Shown here: positions 935-37,422 of the stretch, one piece after another
How positions within the stretch are numbered: position 1 is the first letter of the stretch
Layout: the number at the start of each line of letters is the position of its first letter
Virus record (IMG/VR): IMGVR_UViG_2718217885_000011
Direction: 5' to 3' (one strand)
Length of the DNA: 38,548 bases
Source of the DNA: a virus
Taxonomy: Duplodnaviria > Heunggongvirae > Uroviricota > Caudoviricetes
Notes under the pieces: model-generated
What the model was told of the DNA's origin: nothing
Database searches by the model: none
Seen by the model: the letters and a program-made list of their open reading frames with translations, nothing else
Made by a program: the position numbers and the translations under genes

Positions 935-2620
935 GTGAATATAAACGTCGCCGAATTGTTAAATGGGAATTACATTCTGTTATTATTTGTGGTCCTCGCG
1001 CTTGGGCTATGTCTCGGAAAGTTACGACTTGGTTCGATCCAACTGGGTAATTCCATTGGCGTTTTAGTCGTATCGCTGTTATTAGGCCAACAACATTTCA
1101 GCATTAACACCGATGCGCTTAATCTTGGCTTTATGCTGTTTATTTTCTGCGTCGGGGTCGAAGCCGGACCGAACTTTTTTTCCATTTTTTTTCGCGATGG
1201 GAAAAATTACCTAATGTTAGCACTGGTGATGGTTGGCAGTGCGCTGGTGATCGCCTTAGGGTTAGGTAAGCTGTTTGGCTGGGATATTGGCCTGACGGCC
1301 GGTATGTTAGCAGGCTCTATGACGTCGACACCGGTTCTGGTCGGTGCTGGCGATACACTGCGTCATTCCGGCATGGAAAGCAGGCAGCTCTCACTGGCAC
1401 TGGATAATCTGAGCCTCGGGTATGCCTTAACCTATTTAATCGGTCTGGTGAGTTTGATTGTTGGTGCGCGTTACTTGCCGAAATTGCAGCATCAGGACTT
1501 ACAGACCAGCGCCCAGCAAATCGCCCGCGAACGTGGCCTGGACACTGATGCCAACCGTAAGGTTTATTTACCGGTGATCCGCGCCTATCGCGTCGGCCCG
1601 GAGCTGGTGGCCTGGACCGACGGCAAAAATCTGCGTGAACTGGGTATTTATCGACAAACCGGCTGCTACATTGAACGTATTCGACGTAACGGGATTCTGG
1701 CAAATCCAGACGGTGATGCCGTGCTACAAATGGGCGATGAAATAGCGTTGGTAGGCTATCCCGACGCCCATGCCCGACTCGATCCCAGCTTCCGTAACGG
1801 TAAAGAAGTTTTCGATCGTGACCTTCTCGACATGCGTATCGTCACTGAAGAAGTGGTCGTTAAAAACCATAACGCTGTAGGTAAACGTCTCGCACAACTG
1901 AAGTTGACCGATCACGGTTGCTTCCTTAACCGCGTCATTCGTAGCCAGATTGAGATGCCGATAGATGACAACGTCGTGCTTAACAAAGGTGACGTTTTAC
2001 AAGTCAGCGGTGATGCCCGTCGCGTAAAAACCATCGCCGATCGCATCGGCTTTATCTCGATTCACAGCCAGGTCACTGACCTGCTGGCATTTTGCGCCTT
2101 CTTTGTTATTGGGCTGATGATCGGGATGATCACCTTCCAGTTCAGCACATTCAGTTTCGGCATGGGGAACGCTGCCGGGTTGTTATTCGCCGGAATTATG
2201 CTGGGCTTTATGCGTGCTAACCACCCGACCTTCGGTTACATTCCGCAAGGTGCATTAAGCATGGTGAAAGAGTTCGGCTTGATGGTGTTTATGGCAGGCG
2301 TTGGTCTGAGCGCCGGTAGCGGTATTAATAACGGCCTGGGCGCGATTGGCGGTCAGATGTTGATTGCCGGATTAATTGTCAGTCTTGTGCCCGTGGTTAT
2401 CTGTTTCTTGTTCGGTGCTTATGTATTGCGAATGAACCGCGCACTGTTGTTCGGCGCAATGATGGGCGCACGCACCTGCGCGCCGGCAATGGAGATCATC
2501 AGTGATACAGCTCGCAGTAACATCCCTGCGCTGGGCTACGCGGGCACCTACGCAATCGCCAACGTCCTGCTGACGCTGGCAGGGACAATCATCGTCATGG
2601 TATGGCCAGGATTAGGATAA
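935..2620 (+). CDS. ybjL: putative transporter YbjL (AspT/YidE/YbjL family, two TrkA-C domains)
   Basis: 561-aa polytopic membrane ORF with GTG start; recognised as E. coli YbjL over full length. Confidence 0.95.
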
Positions 2621-25009: not shown

Positions 25010-25711
25010 TTAAATTTCCCTTTCAAGAATATGAGAAACTATTGTCTCAGTTAAATATTTAACCATACCCTCGTTAGCACAGACAGAACCATTCTTCGAT
25101 ATCTCAAATTCACAACGATGTCCTAGAACATATCCTGCCGCCCTGACCTTATCAAGAGAATATGCTTTATCCCCAATAATATCCTTCACATCATCAAATG
25201 CATTTTTCTTAGATGTAACCTCTACGGTTGCCTTAGAGTTATCATTAACTATCAAATTACTAACCTTAACCTTCTTGATACTAACAAGTTCCAAATCATA
25301 TTTTTTATGCAGCGAATCCAAATACTCAGACAGTTTAATATCAACGATGCCAAACCCTATTTTATAACCTGAATCCGCACTAAGTCGCTCTGTCAAAGCC
25401 TTTATTGATTTTGGTGGATTGTAAACTGATAATAAATATAACCTACCTATGAGTTTAGATATAGAGAACTGAATTGACTCATAAGTAATGAACTCTTGTT
25501 CATTTTCGTTACCCAAAGGATCAACTGAAGTCTGTTTATTCAACTTAGCTTCAGTATACTTAGCTGATAGTACGTCAGATGAAACTTCAAAGTCAGAATA
25601 ACCATAGCCAAGTTCTTCAGAGTATTTGTTACTCTTTATATAAAAAGCAATCTCACTTAATGTAAGATTAGACTTCAATCTATTCCATTTAACTCTGATC
25701 AGACTTTCCAT
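25010..25711 (-). CDS. cargo operon gene 3, hypothetical protein (233 aa), no recognisable domain
   Basis: ATG start with GGGGAAG SD-like sequence, 23-nt overlap with the upstream gene; AT-rich codon usage unlike the phage core. Confidence 0.7.
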   Translation of the reverse strand: MESLIRVKWNRLKSNLTLSEIAFYIKSNKYSEELGYGYSDFEVSSDVLSAKYTEAKLNKQTSVDPLGNENEQEFITYESIQFSISKLIGRLYLLSVYNPPKSIKALTERLSADSGYKIGFGIVDIKLSEYLDSLHKKYDLELVSIKKVKVSNLIVNDNSKATVEVTSKKNAFDDVKDIIGDKAYSLDKVRAAGYVLGHRCEFEISKNGSVCANEGMVKYLTETIVSHILEREI

Positions 25712-26813
25712 CTTTCTTCCCCTGAGCCTGTTTATTTAGTTCAATTATAATGGAACGGGCTGCCTTTTCAATCATACGACTAAAAAATAACTTCTGACTA
25801 TCTTTCAACTGGACTGTTGACTTATTATACTCGCCACCCCCTTTGTATTTTTTAATACCTTTAGCTATATATGAAAACCCCTTAAAATTTTGAGCGTCGT
25901 TAAATTGCGCTTCAAACTCAAAAATATTTGGATCCGCACCTTTCTCTTTAACTCGCCATTTAATTTTACATATATAAAAGCCACGCTCATAAAGTGAGTA
26001 GATTTCTTCAGATTTGAGCACCCCTTCCCCTTTCAACGATGCCTTACTAACATGTACTCCTAAATCTGTTTCGCCGTCTTCCTCTTCAATCTCTTCTGGT
26101 TTTGGGTGATAAACATAAGCATCTGTTACATCATCGAGTTCATAACCTTCAAGCCCATTTATTAATTTCGTAAAGAAATCAGTTCTGGACTGAGGGGAAT
26201 CAATGTTTTCTAGACTTATTTCTTGGATATCGAGAGTAGCGTCCGAAATTGGTTTTCCTTCCTCAATCGCTCTTTCCTTTGATAATCTTTCAACGATAGC
26301 AAGTAACTGATTCTCATAAACCTCAGTTTGCTCATTATCTGGACGGCGAATCACATAACCAGCTTCTGTTGGCTCTACCTCTATGACAGCTTGCTTTTTA
26401 ACGACTTGTTTGAAATCACTTTTTGAAAAATTTGTTGACATATAAGTTATATGAATATTTATCATGCCACTTTTATCAGCAACTATATGGCAGAGGTCTT
26501 TTTGGTCTGTTAACTCTTTTTTTAGCGAATCCGCCGCTTTTAATAAAATTGTTTTTTCAGGCATATTAGATACTAATCTTGAAGTAGAACGCTCCCTCCG
26601 AGGCTCACTTCCTAATATCTCTGCAATTTTCTGATGATCATAGTAATCATGAGTGAACTTTGAGAAGTTTTTAGCTAATAATTTTCTATCGGTGTTTTTT
26701 GAAATAATTATACCTCTTGAAAGATAAAGCTCTCTCATCTCATTTTGAGTTACTTGTGACTGGTTAAGAGCATCACATAAAACCTTATCCGTCACACTAT
26801 AAATATTGCTCAT
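25689..26813 (-). CDS. cargo operon gene 2, hypothetical protein (374 aa) with acidic stretch, no recognisable domain
   Basis: ATG start 1 nt after the stop of gene 1 (TGA-T-ATG); long uninterrupted AT-rich ORF. Confidence 0.7.
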   Translation of the reverse strand: MSNIYSVTDKVLCDALNQSQVTQNEMRELYLSRGIIISKNTDRKLLAKNFSKFTHDYYDHQKIAEILGSEPRRERSTSRLVSNMPEKTILLKAADSLKKELTDQKDLCHIVADKSGMINIHITYMSTNFSKSDFKQVVKKQAVIEVEPTEAGYVIRRPDNEQTEVYENQLLAIVERLSKERAIEEGKPISDATLDIQEISLENIDSPQSRTDFFTKLINGLEGYELDDVTDAYVYHPKPEEIEEEDGETDLGVHVSKASLKGEGVLKSEEIYSLYERGFYICKIKWRVKEKGADPNIFEFEAQFNDAQNFKGFSYIAKGIKKYKGGGEYNKSTVQLKDSQKLFFSRMIEKAARSIIIELNKQAQGKKDGKSDQS

Positions 26814-26814
26814 A

Positions 26815-27879
26815 TCAATAATCCCAAGATGTTGATTCAGTACTATAAAACTCTTTAACTGTAGGAACTAAATAAATATCCATAGAAAGTAGTTTTTCCT
26901 TTGCACTATCATCATAATTCCAATCAAAAGCATACTTCTGAAGTGCCCGTTTAAAATGCGATCTTATTGAATCATTCCGATCTTTTGTCGCGATACGTAT
27001 TCTTATGTTGTTTTTTCCATTCAGAATCTGGTAGTTAGTTAAAAGATCAAAGAGATAATAAAACTCCATATCTGTGGAGCCCGGACGATTATAATATACA
27101 ACATACCCTGCAGGATAAACTTCAACTTCTCTTTGTAGCTCGCGATTATACGAGTAAACTGCATCATGTTTAATAATTAAAAATGGAGCAGTCAAAGACT
27201 CTATCGTTGCAGGTAAATAATCATCGGTGACAATTACCTTATGATATGTAAGTTGAGGGTAATAAAAACCATACTCATCTCTCGGGAATTGATTATCTCT
27301 GATTAATTCATTCATATCTGCGATTATAGATAACATATAGCTAATCGACTTAGGCTCAATTATATGTATTTGTTGCCCATCAGACACTTTTATATTATCT
27401 AATTTAACTGCCTTCGGCTTTCTTTTTCTTCCTGCAGGTTTGGGAGGATCGAAGAAATCATAAAAGTTATGCTCAAAATCGTTATCATGATTATAAACAA
27501 ACAATAACCCTCTAACCTCACTATCCCCAACGCATATATTATATTTCTCTCTCCACTCCGGACTATATTGAGCACAGGAAATTGTATACCCTAGGGATGT
27601 CAGCGCTTTTTCTATCATGTCAGGATTAATAGAACCCTTAGAGTAACTTTTTAGGTCAGTATTCAATAAAATAGTTTTATTTAAATAAGGGTCTTTATAG
27701 CTAAAAACCACATCGACAGGGTGTGTATGAGCCTGCTTTTTTTCGAGTGGTTTATGATTTTCTTCGTCAATACATCCAAAGTCCTGATCACACGGCCCTG
27801 ATATGCTCCATTTAAAGCGCTCAAAAATCTTCGATGATACTATCTTTGCTAATTCTTCTATCGGTCCGTTCTCAGCCAC
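26815..27879 (-). CDS. cargo operon gene 1, hypothetical protein (~354 aa); possible PD-(D/E)xK-like motif (HPVD ... ILLNTDLK)
   Basis: ORF open to TTG at 27912; GTG at 27879 preceded by AAGGGGA is the preferred start; no P-loop. Confidence 0.65.
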   Translation of the reverse strand: MAENGPIEELAKIVSSKIFERFKWSISGPCDQDFGCIDEENHKPLEKKQAHTHPVDVVFSYKDPYLNKTILLNTDLKSYSKGSINPDMIEKALTSLGYTISCAQYSPEWREKYNICVGDSEVRGLLFVYNHDNDFEHNFYDFFDPPKPAGRKRKPKAVKLDNIKVSDGQQIHIIEPKSISYMLSIIADMNELIRDNQFPRDEYGFYYPQLTYHKVIVTDDYLPATIESLTAPFLIIKHDAVYSYNRELQREVEVYPAGYVVYYNRPGSTDMEFYYLFDLLTNYQILNGKNNIRIRIATKDRNDSIRSHFKRALQKYAFDWNYDDSAKEKLLSMDIYLVPTVKEFYSTESTSWDY

Positions 27880-28007
27880 AATACATCCCCTTAACCTGAT
27901 CTTTCTCGGCAAAATCCTATGGACAAGATAAGTAAATCATTGTTCCTTTGCAAGAATGGAGGCGCATTATGCTTAGTAGTGAAATATGACATCAAGCGCG
28001 CGCTCGT

Positions 28008-28026: not shown

Positions 28027-28400
28027 GCTTTATGCAGTGGTTTTCATGCACATGCATAACATGAGCAAAAGCCCGCCAGTTCTGGCGGATCTGAGCAAAG
28101 ACGATCCTCAATCGATCATGCGATTTCATGCAGCATAGTCATGCACTGTCAAGGAAGTGAAAATCCGTATCTGAATGGCCACTTGAAAAACGGATCATAC
28201 GGGTTTACAAAGATGAATGTTCGCTGTGAACGGGAAGCGGAAGTTAACTTTCAGATAACATAATCCATATGCACGAGAACCTCTAAAATAGAATGGGACA
28301 CCTAAGCGGGGTACTTACAACGATTCTTTCCATATTCACAGTTAACACTCTGTTTGGCGTATTTTTATTCAAATAGCAAACACCAATAAAAGGAGTTTCC

Positions 28401-28736
28401 ATGAACAATATTCCCCCTATACCACAGTTAGGAATTTATGTCTCAAAAATCGATCCCACCCTACGTATCACTGTAACCGATGTTGATATTGTTGATGGTG
28501 AGGATGATTCTCCTGATGATGAATTGTTTTATTTAGTCCACTGGATCGAGGGGGAAGATGAAAGTGATATGACAGCAATGGGATTTGAGCTAGACCCAGT
28601 AGAGTGGCAGGCTTTCGTTGAATCTGAGCAATTAGTGTTTGAGCGTGATCCGTACATGGATTCAATCCCCGAAAATTCAAACTTGGCAAAGATTCGGGAT
28701 TTTCTCATGAAGACTAAACAGAATGATCATTCGTAA
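28401..28736 (+). CDS. small highly acidic hypothetical protein (111 aa)
   Basis: ATG preceded by AAAGGAG SD; strongly acidic (Asp/Glu-rich); AT-rich. Confidence 0.65.
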   Translation: MNNIPPIPQLGIYVSKIDPTLRITVTDVDIVDGEDDSPDDELFYLVHWIEGEDESDMTAMGFELDPVEWQAFVESEQLVFERDPYMDSIPENSNLAKIRDFLMKTKQNDHS

Positions 28737-28928
28737 GTGTAAGCATCCATCAGGAAAATGGTTTTGTAAGTGAATCATCAACTTTTAGAGAGTCTCAGAC
28801 ACTCCCACTTCTGCTTCTGACACAAAGCGGACGATCACTTATCAAAATAACCGCCCACCTTACGCCTTATTTCACTCATTGCCCAAACTAGCCCCCATCA
28901 GAATGAATCCTCCTGGGGGCAACATTTC

Positions 28929-29162
28929 TTAATGCAGCCAGCTGTCGTCCTCCCACACCTTCTGCATAATTTTCATCACTTGTTTTCTTTCTTCATCCAG
29001 TTGCAGTCCGGTTAGTTCCACACCGTTAGAGCTACCTTTGCGAATGCGAATTACCGTTTTGGGATACAGGGGGCGCAGATTGCGGTAAAGCTCGGATTCA
29101 AGGGCGTCCAGGGTAGACTGGCTAATCTTCTGCTCTTTATCGATCATTATTTCAATGCGCAT
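28929..29162 (-). CDS. DinI-family protein
   Basis: MRIEIMIDKEQ...VWEDDSW resembles E. coli DinI (MRIEVTIAK...TWESADDW); GAGGTGA SD before the internal ATG; ORF track extends to 29234. Confidence 0.75.
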   Translation of the reverse strand: MRIEIMIDKEQKISQSTLDALESELYRNLRPLYPKTVIRIRKGSSNGVELTGLQLDEERKQVMKIMQKVWEDDSWLH

Positions 29163-29172
29163 AAAAGTCACC

Positions 29173-29361
29173 TCAGCTGATGACATCCATTGAGCGGTTG
29201 TATTCGTGGCTTCTGATTTTTGCCATGAGTTCATCAGTCAATTCAGAAACCCACTGCAGAGCCAGCCCCTTCTCTTCATCACTACACTCACTAGCCGCTA
29301 CAAGCTTAAGAAAAAAATCAATGCGCTGGAGCTTCAAAGACTCCAAAAAATAGTCCTGCAT
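29173..29361 (-). CDS. small hypothetical protein (62 aa), first gene of SOS-box operon
   Basis: ATG with AGGAGG SD; LexA box about 45 bp upstream. Confidence 0.55.
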   Translation of the reverse strand: MQDYFLESLKLQRIDFFLKLVAASECSDEEKGLALQWVSELTDELMAKIRSHEYNRSMDVIS

Positions 29362-29403
29362 CTTTCCTCCTATGACACCAAAACAATACTGTATAAATAA
29401 CCA

Positions 29404-29419
29404 CTGTTTATATTTACAG
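29404..29419. promoter_or_regulatory. LexA (SOS) box CTGT-N8-ACAG
   Basis: aCTGTttatatttACAGta matches the consensus taCTGTatatatataCAGta at all conserved positions. Confidence 0.6.
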
Positions 29420-29513
29420 TATATAATAATCTTACTGATGTAAAACGTTTTTTTACGTTCATCGGCCTGATATGCCTGGTATTATTAAGAGCACGAATTG
29501 TCAACCCGCGTAA

Positions 29514-31928
29514 TTAATACAGGTTCCGCCACTTATCATCTTCCTTCAGACGCTGGTTCCGATAGAAGATACGCAGGCCTGCTCCTGACGGAATACTGCC
29601 GCCGCGAAGGAGCAAATCGACTTCTTTCTCGCTGCCATCAAATCCCCTGGACTTCAGTTCATAGACGAGCTGCTGTCGCTGATGGTCTGTAATTCGCTGT
29701 TTGTAGTCTTTACGCCGTTTCGGTTTCACCTGGCGTAACCTTGCAGCCAGTTCCCGGCGCTCTTTTTTGCTCATACTGTGCAGGTAATTGTGCAACTCCT
29801 TGTCATTCATACGGGTAATATCCGTTCTGGAGTCCCCATCAGCTGATTTGTCTTTCCCTTGCTGGTTCAAATTTTCAGCAAGGGGACAGTTATTGCCACG
29901 AGTCCAAGGGGCGCAAGCGCCCTGGTCGGCTGCCGCCTCCTGAACGTCAACGGCCTTACGAACCATTTTCCACTTCACTGCATGAGTGCAGATCTTGCCC
30001 TCTGCAATGGGTGACCAGATGCCATAAATACGAATGCCGTGATCGCCATAGGCGGTCGGCTCTTCGTTGATTTCATAAGCGGTTCTGATGAGGTGATATT
30101 TGCGGGGAACCAGTACGCCGCCCTGCTTCATGATGTAGGTGGCAAAACAACCAGCATCAGCAGCAGCCAGGATGGCATCAAGGCGTGGGTTATCCAGTAC
30201 CGGCGCACCTGCTTTTTTGTCCCCCTGTTGCCTTGCCGCCTGACCAGCCAGCAATCGCAGTTCACGGTAAGCCTGACGCCCCGGAATGCCAAAGAAGCGG
30301 AATTGCTGAACACGATGCAGAGACGCCCAGGCATTAACGTATTCAGCGTTATCACGCAGGGATTTACCCGTTTCCTTGCTGATCTCGCCAGCCAGACCAC
30401 GCCCGTCAATGTTCTTACTGATGTATTTCGCGATGTAGCTTGTTGGCGTACCTTTGCGCGGGTTTATCAGCTCAGACTTAAAGCGTGGTCCTGTGTTATT
30501 ACCCAGCTCCTCGCGGTCTTCACGAATGGCAAACTTACGCAACAAAGCAGTAATGGCGCGGCGATCTTTTTTGCGCATAAAACACAACAGGTGCCAGTGA
30601 ACTGTACCGTCATGATGCGGCTCAGCCACCCGCACGCCATACCAGCGCAATCCGGCTTTGTACATCGCCTTACGAAATGCAGCAAACATGCCGACCAGAT
30701 AATCACTGCTTTGTCTTACCGTCGCATTTGTCCAGGTCGGGTTGGGCCTGCCGTTATTTAGCGTGGAATGGAAACGTGACGGACAGGTGATGGTGTAGAA
30801 AACGGCGCAGTCGCCACGCATTTCCGCGATAAGCTCCAGACCTTTAACACAGGCCATCATCTCATTGCGGCGATGCGCAGGGTTGCTGCTGCTGGCGTTT
30901 ACCACATCCTCCATGTCCAGAGTGTCGCCGTCTTCGTTCACCAGTTCATGAGAACGGAAAAACTCCAGCGACTTACGGCGCTGCTCACGTTTATGCATCA
31001 CGGCTTCATAGCTGACATAGGGAGATGCTTTTTTGCTGACAAGGCAGACAGCACGCAACTGCTCTTCCCGCCATTCGCAACGCATCTTCCATAATTTCCG
31101 ATACCACCAGTCGGCGCACAACATACGCGCCAGCGAACCCGGAATGAGTTCATAGGGCACGGGTTTACGGCGGTTTCTTTTCCGACGGAGTTGCTCAAAC
31201 GCAGGCGGGATGACATCCAGACGCACGGTTTCCGCTGCCACCTTTTCCCATGTCTTGCGGATTTCTGCTGGCTTAACGTCATCGGTGGCATACAAATCGC
31301 CACAAGCTGCATCAAGGCACATGCTCATATGCGCAGCTACCAGGGTGGACAGGCGTTTCACCTGATCCTGACTCATTTCAGGCAGGATCAGCAGGCCGTC
31401 CAGCCCTTCATGGCTTGCCATAAAGCGAAAAGAAGTGGATAGCTGACTGTCGCGTACATGCTCCAGTCGTTCAAGACATGGCTTAATCGTCTCACGCAAA
31501 TAGCGGAAATAAGCCTTTGGCCTGCCCAGGCTGCTGAAGTATTCAATACGTTGCATCAGCGGCTTGCTGATGTGGGAAGGCTGGGCATTGACGTCCGCCA
31601 GAATGACCATTTCTGGATTAAAACGCTGCTGCTCATGCGCCAGCTTTGCCCGGCTAATGAGCTTATCCTGCTCCATTCCGCGTTGGACAGGATCACGGGA
31701 TTCATTAAAGAAATAACGCTCCCAGACCTGCTCACTCAGTGCCTCGTGGCGCAGTTGTTCCTGCTCGTTATCGGCAGCGTACAGAGTGATCAGGTTTGAA
31801 AGTGCAGACTCCGGCGCAACTTCCGCCGGGTCCAGATAAGGGTTAATGGCCTTTTTCGGGCCGTTCCATGAAAATGATGCAGCGGCCTCGTTAAAGCCGC
31901 TAGAGTTGCTCATATCGTCATAACTCAT
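29514..31928 (-). CDS. replication initiation protein A (rolling-circle HUH endonuclease)
   Basis: 804-aa ORF with HWHLLCF (HUH) and YIAKYISK (catalytic Tyr) motifs as in P2 gpA. Confidence 0.9.
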
Positions 31929-34670: not shown

Positions 34671-35609
34671 ATGTCAACTCAAAAAATCACATTTCGCCAT
34701 ATTGAAGATAGTCTGAAAGCTATGGTCATGCAGAATCGTGGAGGGCAAAAAGTCATTGAGAGGATACTCAAGGCCTATGGTTTCAAATCACGCCAAGCCT
34801 TCTGTAAGCATCTTGGTATTTCACAAAGCACAATGGCTAATAGATATGCACGCGATACCTTCCCTGCTGATTGGGTTGTTATATGTTCAATGGAAACTGG
34901 CGCATCCCTAGAATGGCTGGCCTTTGGTTCTAACAATGCAGAAGAAAGTTTCCCCCCTTATGTGGAACAACATGATGAAACAGTCCCACATGAGGGGTTT
35001 AACAGCAACGCTCATCAATCATCCTTTAAGCGCCGCATTGAGAATCACATTGAGCTTACTAACGGAGGAAAAGCCGCGATAGAGAGGATTGTTAATGCTT
35101 ACGGGTTTAAAACCCGCCAAGCCTTAGCCGACCACCTTGGTATTTCAAAAAGCACATTAGCCACACGATACATGCGAGATTCTTTCCCTGCGGATTGGGT
35201 GATTAAATGCGCATTAGAAACCAAAGCGGATCTCGCCTGGCTAGTTACAGGAATCGAAACACCAAATAGTTCACAAGAAGAAAACACTGTAATTTTAAAT
35301 AAGTTCAATTTGGTCAATGGCGTGCTTGTCGAGTCAGGTTTTTTATCCATGGATCGGTGTCTACTTCCGAAGCAAGAAACTAGCAGCTTGATGTTTGTAA
35401 GCAATGGAGAAAAACATGTCATATGTGATAAAGAATTTCACCTAATTAGAGATGGAAAATGGTTAGTAGGAATTGACAATGAGTTATCTTTAAAAGAGTT
35501 AACTCGTTTACCTAAGAACAAAATTCTTGTTTCTGGTGGGAGTAAGGATTTTGAGTGTTCCATTGAGGATATTCAAATTATAGCCAGCATTATCTTAACA
35601 ATACAATAA
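34671..35609 (+). CDS. CI-type immunity repressor (186 CI family) with tandem duplicated N-terminal HTH domain
   Basis: two ~65-aa repeats (IERILKAYGFKSRQAFCKHLGISQSTMANRYARDTFPADW... / IERIVNAYGFKTRQALADHLGISKSTLATRYMRDSFPADW...) plus a C-terminal domain resembling 186 CI. Confidence 0.8.
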   Translation: MSTQKITFRHIEDSLKAMVMQNRGGQKVIERILKAYGFKSRQAFCKHLGISQSTMANRYARDTFPADWVVICSMETGASLEWLAFGSNNAEESFPPYVEQHDETVPHEGFNSNAHQSSFKRRIENHIELTNGGKAAIERIVNAYGFKTRQALADHLGISKSTLATRYMRDSFPADWVIKCALETKADLAWLVTGIETPNSSQEENTVILNKFNLVNGVLVESGFLSMDRCLLPKQETSSLMFVSNGEKHVICDKEFHLIRDGKWLVGIDNELSLKELTRLPKNKILVSGGSKDFECSIEDIQIIASIILTIQ

Positions 35610-35652: not shown

Positions 35653-37422
35653 ATGAATCATCATCTTTCAAAGATTTCTATAAAAAACTTTAGATCTTGC
35701 AAAGATATTGATATCAATTTTTCTTCATTCACGCCTTTAATCGGTTACAACAATGCTGGTAAGTCAACGATTTTAAATGCTATTGAATGGCTTTTTAAGA
35801 AAAAACTTTTGTCCTCTGATGATTATACTAATCCAGATAACCCTATAGAAGTTATAGGTACAGTTAAGGGTATTACTGAAGATATTTTGTCAGCTTTAAC
35901 AGAAGAAAACAGAACTAGAATTTCACCCTACATTATTGATGGGGTATTGATATTTAAGCGTCAACAGACTGTTGGTGCTCAAAGTGCAAAAGACGTCAGA
36001 TTATTAATTAAAAACCCAGAAAATAACGAATTCAGGACATCACCAACGGGTATTGAGAATGCGATAAAAGCTTTATTTCCAGACCCAATACGTATAGGTG
36101 CAATGGAAAATGCAGCGGATGATTCTTCAAAATCAAAAACAGGAACTACAATAGGTAAGTTGCTGGCAGAATTGAGTTGCAAAATAGAAGAGAAGCACAC
36201 TCAAAGGATACTAAGCCATTTAAATGCCGTTAATAGAAGAATGACTGCAACCGGTAATAAACGAATATCGGACCTCAATGATATTGATGATTCAATAAGT
36301 AGTAAACTTGCTGATTTCTTCCTTGGGATAAGTTTAAAACTACACTTCGAACTCCCTGACTTCAAGGATATATTTAAATCTGGGACTGTAAAAGTATATG
36401 AAGATTCATTTCCCGGCATTGCTCGTGACTGTTCTTCTTATGGTCATGGCACACAGCGTTCGATTCAGATGTCTCTAATAAGACATTTAGCTGATATAAC
36501 CAACGGTGATGATATTAAAACAACTACTCTACTGTTAATAGATGAACCTGAGTTATATCTTCACCCATTTGCTATCGAACAAATTAGAGAATCTCTAAAA
36601 ACACTATCTCATCATGGATATCAAATAATTTTCTCTACCCATTCATCTCAAATGATTACCTCTGACTTAGCAAAAGACACTGTGTTAATCAGAAAAAACA
36701 GTCAGCGTGGCACTCATTGCAGATTAACATTAAAAGAAGCAGTCAATAAAGTAATCGAACAACGACCAGCACAAGCAACCCATTTATTTTCATTAACACA
36801 GTCTTCAAAAGTTTTGTTTGCTAACAATGTAATACTAACAGAAGGTAAAACAGAGACTACTCTGCTCCCATTTATTTTTAACAAAGTTAAAAATAAAACA
36901 TTAGGTCAGATGCAAATAGCACTAATTGAAACAGGGTCCGTTGAAAGTATATCTAAAACGATGCAAATTCTAAATTCAATGGATATACCTACAAAAGCAA
37001 TTGTTGATTTAGATTTTGCGTTCCGCGGTGCAATAAGGAACAACTTCTTAGAACATAATGACGAGGATATTTTACGACTAAAAGAAATCTTGAGAAGTAT
37101 GCATGCTAATGGAGAATGCACTCTCGATGGATCCGGTTTGCCTACAAAGGGTAGTAACACTACCGCAGCTGAAGCATTTGCTATTATGTCTCAAAAGCCC
37201 GGCGCCAGAGAATTTTTGTCATCATTAGCCGCAAAACTGAGAAATGCAAATATTTGGATTTGGCTAAATGGTTCGATAGAAAACCATTTGGGTCTTACAG
37301 AAAAAAATGAATCAGTATGGGCTGATTTCAAAACAAAAGCAGATACACAACCTCTTTCAGATATCTGTGCAGATTTCGAAAGTATTGAGGCTTTAGTCGA
37401 CTGGATTACCCCTGACGTATGA
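35653..37422 (+). CDS. OLD-family ATP-dependent endonuclease (ABC-type ATPase + TOPRIM), P2 Old-like class 1
   Basis: Walker A GYNNAGKST, Walker B LLLIDEPELYLHP, FSTHS, then TOPRIM-like VILTEGKTE and VDLDF; 589 aa (P2 Old ~586 aa); strong GGAGG SD. Confidence 0.85.
   Translation: MNHHLSKISIKNFRSCKDIDINFSSFTPLIGYNNAGKSTILNAIEWLFKKKLLSSDDYTNPDNPIEVIGTVKGITEDILSALTEENRTRISPYIIDGVLIFKRQQTVGAQSAKDVRLLIKNPENNEFRTSPTGIENAIKALFPDPIRIGAMENAADDSSKSKTGTTIGKLLAELSCKIEEKHTQRILSHLNAVNRRMTATGNKRISDLNDIDDSISSKLADFFLGISLKLHFELPDFKDIFKSGTVKVYEDSFPGIARDCSSYGHGTQRSIQMSLIRHLADITNGDDIKTTTLLLIDEPELYLHPFAIEQIRESLKTLSHHGYQIIFSTHSSQMITSDLAKDTVLIRKNSQRGTHCRLTLKEAVNKVIEQRPAQATHLFSLTQSSKVLFANNVILTEGKTETTLLPFIFNKVKNKTLGQMQIALIETGSVESISKTMQILNSMDIPTKAIVDLDFAFRGAIRNNFLEHNDEDILRLKEILRSMHANGECTLDGSGLPTKGSNTTAAEAFAIMSQKPGAREFLSSLAAKLRNANIWIWLNGSIENHLGLTEKNESVWADFKTKADTQPLSDICADFESIEALVDWITPDV

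Follow-up and report, generated by a model that had tools for sequence, protein, structure and literature searches.

Organization of the Locus

The window, by which we mean the whole stretch of 38,548 nt that was analyzed, is a P2/186-like (Peduoviridae) prophage of the Fels-2/186 type. Downstream of replication gene A, on the minus strand, it carries a LexA operator followed by two short genes, ORF1, a probable tum gene of the tumA type, and ORF2, a dinI-like gene of the tumB type (table 1). A 152-nt intergenic region separates gene A from the 62-aa ORF1, and on its other side the module is flanked by variable cargo adjoining the portal gene. The module follows gene A in the same orientation as a putative transcription unit of its own, and it holds the same position in 186, PsP3, Fels-2, and Escherichia coli HS.

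Table 1. Coordinates of the tum–dinI module and of the associated phage genes in the window.
Feature	Position	Strand	Remarks
cI repressor, presumed Tum target	34671..35609	+	186-type, 312 aa, duplicated HTH domain
Gene A	31928..29514	-	Pfam Phage_GPA, 3.1e-126
-35-like hexamer TTTACA	29444..29439	-	Putative; 17 nt upstream of TACTGT
-10-like hexamer TACTGT	29421..29416	-	Putative, by analogy with 186 p95; first six bases of box 1
SOS box 1, TACTGTAAATATAAACAGTG	29421..29402	-	CTGT and ACAG arms both intact
SOS box 2, CAGTGGTTATTTATACAGTA	29406..29387	-	5-nt overlap with box 1
Shine–Dalgarno AGGAGG of ORF1	29371..29366	-	4 nt before ATG, read from the sequence
ORF1, tum (tumA-type)	29361..29173	-	62 aa
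Shine–Dalgarno GAGGTGA of dinI-like gene	29174..29168	-	Overlaps tum stop TGA (29175..29173)
ORF2, dinI-like (tumB-type)	29162..28929	-	77 aa, 234 nt, Pfam DinI
Possible terminator	28920..28891	-	GCCCCCA...TGGGGGC stem, 16-nt loop, then TAGTTTGGG

An initial annotation of this DNA, made from the sequence alone, had described a consensus SOS box about 45 bp before a 62-aa ORF with an AGGAGG Shine–Dalgarno sequence, followed 11 nt later by a DinI-family ORF with GAGGTGA as its own. The distance to the box is a fair description, as its edge lies 40 nt and its center approximately 50 nt from the ATG of ORF1, and both Shine–Dalgarno sequences are present. The DinI-family ORF is real as well (Pfam E = 6.8e-23), but the gap between the two ORFs is 10 nt rather than 11. 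ORF2 in fact begins at the ATG at 29162, which gives it the length of 77 aa (234 nt) that its counterparts in Fels-2 and PsP3 also have. A 101-aa ORF at 29234..28929 in the program-made list of reading frames was set aside as a mere extension of the DinI frame to an upstream in-frame ATG.

Translational coupling of dinI to tum is possible. A 6-bp hairpin reported by the terminator scan across the ORF1 stop and the ORF2 Shine–Dalgarno sequence was rejected as a regulatory element; it folds like its shuffles (z = -0.16). Downstream of dinI, a hairpin with a fold energy of -20.5 kcal/mol and a z of only -1.5 is a weak candidate for a terminator, which the terminator scan missed because its loop is long. 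Similarity to Fels-2 and to most other phage records stops at 28919–28931, and thus the conserved module ends there, after dinI. A search of Rfam across 28300..29700 returned no match at E values up to 1.

The LexA Operator and the Putative Promoter

The 20-mer CACTGTTTATATTTACAGTA (29402..29421) differs from the LexA consensus TACTGTATATATATACAGTA at no more than three positions. No other site in the 38.5 kb comes this close, nor did any site in 100 shuffles. The minimal motif CTGT-N8-ACAG also occurs once in the window, at 29404..29419, although with 0.61 occurrences expected by chance this count is not significant. Box 1 is retained in Fels-2, 813R9, E. coli HS, and MLG42.

A second SOS box, overlapping the first, had been missed by the initial annotation. 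It has five mismatches to the consensus, two of which fall in the left CTGT arm (here GTGG). The operator thus consists of two overlapping 20-bp boxes with a common inner arm (CAGTG), which is the arrangement of a colicin-type double operator. The double box is common to Fels-2, 813R9, HS, and the Yersinia phage MLG42, with arms that are kept and spacers that vary; in box 2 of these relatives the arms CAGTGG and ACAGT are fixed and the spacer is variable. Box 2 is absent from 186, PsP3, ESSI-2, and ev015, in which a single box is found.

We compared the operator with plasmid sequences by a sensitive DNA search that used a 71-nt operator stretch as the query. This search hit the promoters of two bacteriocin genes, those for colicin E1 (cea) and pesticin (pst). 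No gaps are needed to align the 35-bp operator TACTGTAAATATAAACAGTGGTTATTTATACAGTA with TGCTGTATATAAAACCAGTGGTTATATATACAGTA of a ColE1-type plasmid and with TACTGTACATAAAAACAGTGGTTTTATGTACAGTA of pPCP1, and box 2 corresponds column for column to the second cea and pst boxes. Outside of the operator the sequences are not alignable, and the genes that are controlled are unrelated, namely a bacteriocin in the colicin and pesticin systems and a phage antirepressor here. In colicin genes, two overlapping boxes bind two LexA dimers, which results in tight repression and late derepression (PMC2994835). By analogy with these near-identical operators, the double box in the window probably binds two LexA dimers, and it may plausibly repress more tightly than the operator of 186 and respond at a higher SOS threshold or later.

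The putative promoter is overlapped by this operator, as far as can be judged from the sequence. The annotated p95 promoter of 186 is composed of TTCACA, 18 nt, and TACTGT, and in the 186 record (NC_001317) the -10 signal and the putative LexA site share their first base; the arrangement in the window is identical. TTTACA at the same spacing as in the window is also present in the Yersinia phage MLG42 and the Cronobacter phage ESSI-2. A generic sigma-70 scan of 28300..29700 found no promoter, since TACTGT fits TATAAT at only three of six positions, and the tum promoter is therefore assigned by analogy with p95.

ORF1 and ORF2 Correspond to the Two Halves of 186 Tum

ORF1 matches two PHROG families, phrog_698 (E = 5.9e-38) and phrog_8554 (E = 1.1e-8). 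The N-terminal 71 residues of 186 Tum match the same families at the same profile positions, with E values of about 2.4e-5 to 6.1e-6 for phrog_698 and about 1.4e-11 to 3.5e-12 for phrog_8554. Furthermore, when a 28-member alignment of the ORF1 family was compared with 186 Tum by hhalign, residues 3–44 of ORF1 were paired with residues 3–44 of Tum at a probability of 94.9% (E = 4.5e-8). Homology of ORF1 to the N-terminal half of 186 Tum is thus found by profiles. Pairwise BLASTP produced no alignment between ORF1 and 186 Tum, between ORF1 and PsP3 TumA, or between PsP3 TumA and 186 Tum. PsP3 TumA shows no more than marginal similarity to the ORF1 family (hhalign E = 0.0039, probability 8.6%); it belongs to phrog_1993, through which 186 Tum is tied to TumA. 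These comparisons support the assignment of ORF1 as a Tum antirepressor equivalent to the N-terminal half of 186 Tum that is not DinI-like.

A word-indexed protein search returned 483 matches to ORF1 at E values up to 0.001, of which the best 120 are all at least 82% identical to it. These matches offered no diversity from which to build a profile, and an exhaustive search of representatives was therefore needed. Across 1.84 billion proteins (cluster representatives), this search recovered only 67 relatives of ORF1, nearly all of which are 50–100 aa in length. None of the 67 has an N-terminal ORF1-like match that would leave space for a DinI domain downstream; the few representatives longer than about 105 aa either have the match at the C-terminal end or are themselves of low complexity.

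The AlphaFold model of ORF1 contains helices at residues 2–23 and 28–61 (pLDDT 88), and the protein is confidently predicted to be a two-helix hairpin. A Foldseek comparison of this model with the PDB returned only generic helical hairpins, none at an E value of 0.001 or better, and a profile search of the PDB with the ORF1 family alignment gave no matches. The Tum antirepressor likewise has no match in Pfam, NCBIfam, or the PDB.

ORF2 matches the Pfam DinI family (PF06183) over profile positions 1–63 of 63, with 81.2 bits against a gathering cut-off of 24.2. It aligns to residues 71–145 of 186 Tum, the DinI-like C-terminal half, at 41% identity, and to the structure of E. coli DinI (PDB 1ghh) at an E value of 2.7e-6; ORF2 therefore represents the DinI-like moiety of the module. 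With the NCBIfam DinI equivalog model (NF007893) it scores 42.7 bits, below the cut-off of 111, and is thus a phage DinI-like paralog rather than the chromosomal DinI. The ORF2 protein is most likely a ligand of RecA filaments that tunes SOS signaling or limits it. In Gifsy prophages, non-polar deletions of dinI have no significant effect on induction (PMC3121763).

The initial annotation had noted that Tum resembles DinI and had pointed to 186 Tum and to DinI as the proteins with which both ORFs should be compared. The resemblance is confirmed, and the alignments place the two ORFs on the two halves of Tum, in order.

The CI Repressor

The presumed target of Tum is encoded on the opposite strand. 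The CI protein has two tandem HTH domains (PF07022 twice) and a PF16452 C-terminal domain, and the Pfam search found no S24 peptidase (self-cleavage) domain in it, as in the non-cleaving CI of the 186 type. Induction is therefore expected to proceed through an antirepressor and not through cleavage of the repressor. The identity of this CI is 37% to 186 CI, 55% to the CI of HS, and 45% to the CI of a strain that has exactly the same DNA sequence as the window in its tum module. Because the window CI carries an extra N-terminal HTH domain and has only this level of identity to the HS protein, we infer, rather than take as given, that Tum would inactivate it.

Relatives of the Module and Published Experiments

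Between the DinI stop codon and the end of gene A, a stretch of 600 bp, the window shares 96–98% identity with Fels-2, Escherichia phage 813R9, and numerous Klebsiella prophages, among others. The module is found in 1124 of 5426 complete E. coli genomes, or approximately one in five, and its copies in laboratory strains of the BL21 lineage show 99.8% identity. All RefSeq rows inspected label ORF1 a "hypothetical protein," and one UniRef name and some phage records call it a "levan regulatory protein."

The Fels-2 module has 96.8% DNA identity to that of the window, the same split, and the same double box. Of its two genes, STM2728 is annotated as a "hypothetical protein" and STM2726.1 as a "DinI family protein," the latter with a noted similarity to PsP3 TumB. 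PsP3 is split like the window. Its tumA is annotated as "similar to 5' end 186 tum; UV induction of prophage" and its tumB as "similar to dinI and 3' end of 186 tum." It differs in having a single SOS box, a 3-nt gap, and a TumA of another PHROG. In 186 itself, tum encodes one fused 146-aa protein with annotated internal starts that give DinI-like truncated forms, whereas the window has two genes. The two phages share the place of the module after gene A, a LexA site that begins at TACTGT, the antirepressor and DinI-like moieties, and the type of CI. They differ in that 186 has one SOS box where the window has two that overlap, and in that 186 runs on into orf97 where the conserved module of the window ends after dinI. 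Since a stop codon and 10 nt divide its ORFs, the module belongs to the split PsP3/Fels-2 subtype and not to the fused 186 form.

The initial annotation had also stated that 186 is induced through a LexA-repressed antirepressor and not through repressor cleavage, and this is borne out by the published account of 186, in which Tum is expressed from the LexA-repressed p95 and sequesters CI (PMC7708051; Lamont 1989, Brumby 1996, and Shearwin 1998 as cited there). In the accounts of PMC3121763 and PMC7708051, binding of Tum to CI has been demonstrated only for 186 Tum (Shearwin 1998, as cited there). Lemire et al. (2011) describe Tum as an antirepressor with a DinI-like second half; they treat the split of tum in Fels-2 and PSP3 as the normal state and identify the upstream PSP3 gene as the antirepressor (PMC3121763). 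The gfoA–irsA and gftA–irsA operons of the Gifsy prophages likewise combine a LexA-repressed small antirepressor with a DinI homolog, and their repressor is uncleaved during induction (PMC3121763). They differ from the window in that dinI comes first, the phages are lambdoid, and the repressors and antirepressors belong to other families, the last point by literature description only (PMC3121763).

Direct evidence comes from DuoHS, the P2-like prophage of E. coli HS, in the Phollow study. An in-frame deletion of tum abolishes both lysis and viral foci after mitomycin C, and the non-cleavable allele lexA(Ind-) likewise abolishes both (PMC12055606, Nat Microbiol 2025; preprint PMC11195241). ORF1 and the HS tum product, WP_001154431.1, share 100% of their residues. 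The published primer junction of the deletion, ATAGGAGGAAAGATG|TGAGGTGACTTTTATGCGCATTG (PMC11195241), fits the window without a mismatch at the start (ATG) and stop (TGA) codons of ORF1. The HS DinI-like protein, WP_001217575.1, is found under the same accession in the strain whose module is 100% identical to the window. DuoHS has a near-identical promoter, the same double SOS box, and the same chromosomal neighborhood next to ybjL. It differs in its CI, which has 189 aa and one HTH domain compared with 312 aa and two HTH domains in the window, and in the cargo genes beside the module.

The initial annotation took the module for the SOS-sensing induction switch of the prophage. The requirement for an identical tum in the induction of DuoHS supports this interpretation, and published work on identical and homologous genes suggests that induction of the window prophage would depend on both LexA and tum. 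Taken together, we conclude with a probability of roughly 0.9 that the module is the split tumA–tumB form of 186 tum and the SOS-sensing induction operon of a P2-like prophage of the Fels-2/186 type.

Alternative Explanations

The initial annotation had left it undecided whether the split is natural or the result of a disrupted tum. If the two ORFs were the remains of a single 186-like tum that was broken by a frameshift or nonsense mutation, the switch would be defective. The two halves do form one 146-aa polypeptide in 186, and an in-frame ATG at 29234 lengthens the DinI frame so that it overlaps ORF1 at its 3' end, as would fit such a break. However, the two-gene layout recurs in Fels-2 (10-nt gap), PsP3 (3-nt gap), MLG42 (12-nt gap), and E. 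coli HS (10-nt gap), and the junctions of the PsP3, MLG42, and Fels-2/HS types differ from each other, each with its own stop, Shine–Dalgarno sequence, and ATG. Among complete E. coli genomes, 1077 match at least 80% of the module, and the genes are separate in every annotated row inspected. The lack of any fused form among the 67 representatives of the ORF1 family and the description of the split as normal for Fels-2 and PSP3 (PMC3121763) point the same way, and the HS prophage with an identical split module is inducible (PMC12055606). We therefore regard a broken tum as scarcely credible and the split as natural. A different proposal accepts two functional genes and reassigns their roles, such that the DinI-like protein is the inducer or the operon is a moron that modulates the SOS response of the host and stands outside of the lysis–lysogeny switch. 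Consistent with this, only ORF2 has a domain recognized by Pfam, ORF1 is a "hypothetical protein" almost everywhere, and the truncated DinI-like forms of 186 Tum are annotated as modulating SOS induction. Yet the deletion in HS removes ORF1 only, fusing its ATG to the TGA and leaving the Shine–Dalgarno sequence and ATG of dinI intact, and induction is lost. The antirepressor activity of PSP3 maps to the upstream gene, and the dinI deletions in Gifsy prophages also argue against an inducing role (PMC3121763). Additionally, the distant family members ESSI-2 and ESSI2_ev015 retain a LexA box and an ORF1 homolog with no dinI downstream, so the antirepressor is an independent unit. This proposal is very improbable.

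The module could also be intact and yet mismatched to the CI of the window, in which case Tum would fail on the two-HTH repressor and the prophage would not be SOS-inducible or would depend on a helper. An identical Tum occurs with one-HTH CIs that are only 45–55% identical to the window CI, and the immunity region and the tum module have clearly been exchanged independently of each other. Klebsiella phages, however, pair a two-HTH CI (52–59% identity) with an ORF1 at 98.4% identity, and the recurrence of this pairing in phage records from another genus argues against a mismatch. Moreover, the HTH domains are the best-conserved part of the CIs compared, with about 80% identity between HS CI and the second HTH of the window CI (by eye, not separately computed), so a conserved target surface is plausible. 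On balance we consider a mismatch improbable.

A Model for Prophage Induction

With the module read as the split tum operon, we envisage the following course of events. In the lysogen, LexA would occupy the two overlapping boxes that cover the -10 hexamer and the predicted transcription start, and the operon would be off. DNA damage would activate RecA and lead to the self-cleavage of LexA, upon which the promoter would fire. One transcript would then give two small proteins, Tum followed by the DinI-like protein. Tum, as a 62-aa helical hairpin, would bind the CI of the 186 type, which does not cleave itself, and keep it off its operators. Removal of CI would free the early lytic promoter (apl, cII, and onward to gene A), and lytic growth would follow. 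The 77-aa DinI-like protein would act on the RecA side of the response.

Beyond this model we can offer one tentative extension, which we judge to be rather unlikely as it stands. Prophages of the Fels-2/DuoHS class may be late, high-threshold responders, given their colicin-type double operator as opposed to the single box of 186 and PsP3, and their Tum may be an antirepressor of broad specificity that acts across diverged CI alleles, including those with a duplicated HTH domain, and thereby cross-induces co-resident P2-like prophages of different immunity. Neither the double-operator nor the broad-specificity point was found in the literature searched, the scope of which did not extend to Bunny, Liu, and Roth (2002), reportedly the primary paper on Fels-2 tum and one that may describe the Fels-2 operator.

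Significance

The system described here is not new, and experiments have been performed on an identical copy of it; the reading of the module is thus correct but ordinary, and the understanding of the mechanism is unchanged by it. Its main use is to correct the annotation of the Tum antirepressor of a very common class of prophages. With ORF1 known as the SOS trigger, it can be told which prophages are induced by DNA-damaging antibiotics. Finally, the double operator and the non-matching pairs of Tum and CI provide modest leads on the threshold for induction and on cross-talk between prophages.

Accessory Genes and Possible Integration Site of the Prophage

The ORF at the left end of the window looks like the host gene ybjL, a judgment that we base on its size and position. 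In E. coli HS, ybjL flanks the ogr/D end of the P2-like prophage DuoHS. Thus, if the 561-aa ORF is indeed ybjL, the window prophage occupies the same integration site as DuoHS, ybjL-rcdA.

Two places in the prophage carry genes of a defense type. The three genes that lie beside the tum-dinI module match Hp3 (6.9e-9), Hp2 (2.5e-47), and Hp1 (5.5e-64) in PADLOC, and no Pfam domain was found in any of them. These genes resemble a candidate three-gene antiphage system situated in a variable cargo slot. In other strains this slot holds different cargo, for example a retron St85 system. The second defense-type cargo gene is the OLD-family gene, which is matched by PADLOC Old (5.6e-232) and by the Pfam domains AAA_15 and OLD-like TOPRIM. 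The acidic ORF matches phrog_17127 (2e-70), a family without assigned function, and searches of this ORF against Pfam and PADLOC returned no match. The gene is found in the same place in strain VG1046-3E9.

Features of the prophage and of related loci
Feature	Location	Strand	Remarks
561-aa ORF	window 935..2620	+	left end
Three cargo genes	window 25010..27912	-	between portal gene and tum-dinI module
111-aa acidic ORF	window 28401..28736	+	just downstream of tum-dinI module, opposite strand
tum	window 29173..29361	-	pairing with cI compared (loci L012, L014)
cI repressor gene	window 34671..35609	+	312 aa; two PF07022 copies, then PF16452 C-domain
OLD-family ATPase/TOPRIM nuclease gene	window 35653..37422	+	between cI and int
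Distant tum family members, ESSI-2-like phages	L009 601..820; L010 601..813

Tum and Its Pairing with CI

Distant homologs of Tum (P0147, P0153, P0156, P0173, P0181, and others) occur in ESSI-2-like phages, in which there is one SOS box and dinI does not follow the Tum gene. A conserved Gly-rich C-terminal tail (...NPQxGGxxGGxxLQ), absent from the Tum of the window, is shared by many of these distant homologs.

The CI repressor of the window differs from those of 186, Fels-2, E. coli HS, and VG1046-3E9, which are 189-210 aa in length and contain one copy of PF07022. In the window CI two copies of this HTH domain are arranged in tandem (residues ~22-86 and ~131-195), N-terminal to PF16452. The two-HTH form is also found in Klebsiella phages such as 4LV2017, with 52-59% identity to the window CI.

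A 100% identical Tum is found in different E. coli strains together with CIs that are only 45-55% identical to that of the window, and phage records in which Tum is at least 97% identical carry CIs that are 41-59% identical. This occurrence of identical or nearly identical Tum proteins beside diverged repressors means that Tum is not paired one-to-one with immunity type. Such a lack of correspondence suggests that CIs share a conserved target surface for Tum, and it is possible that one prophage could cross-induce another via Tum.
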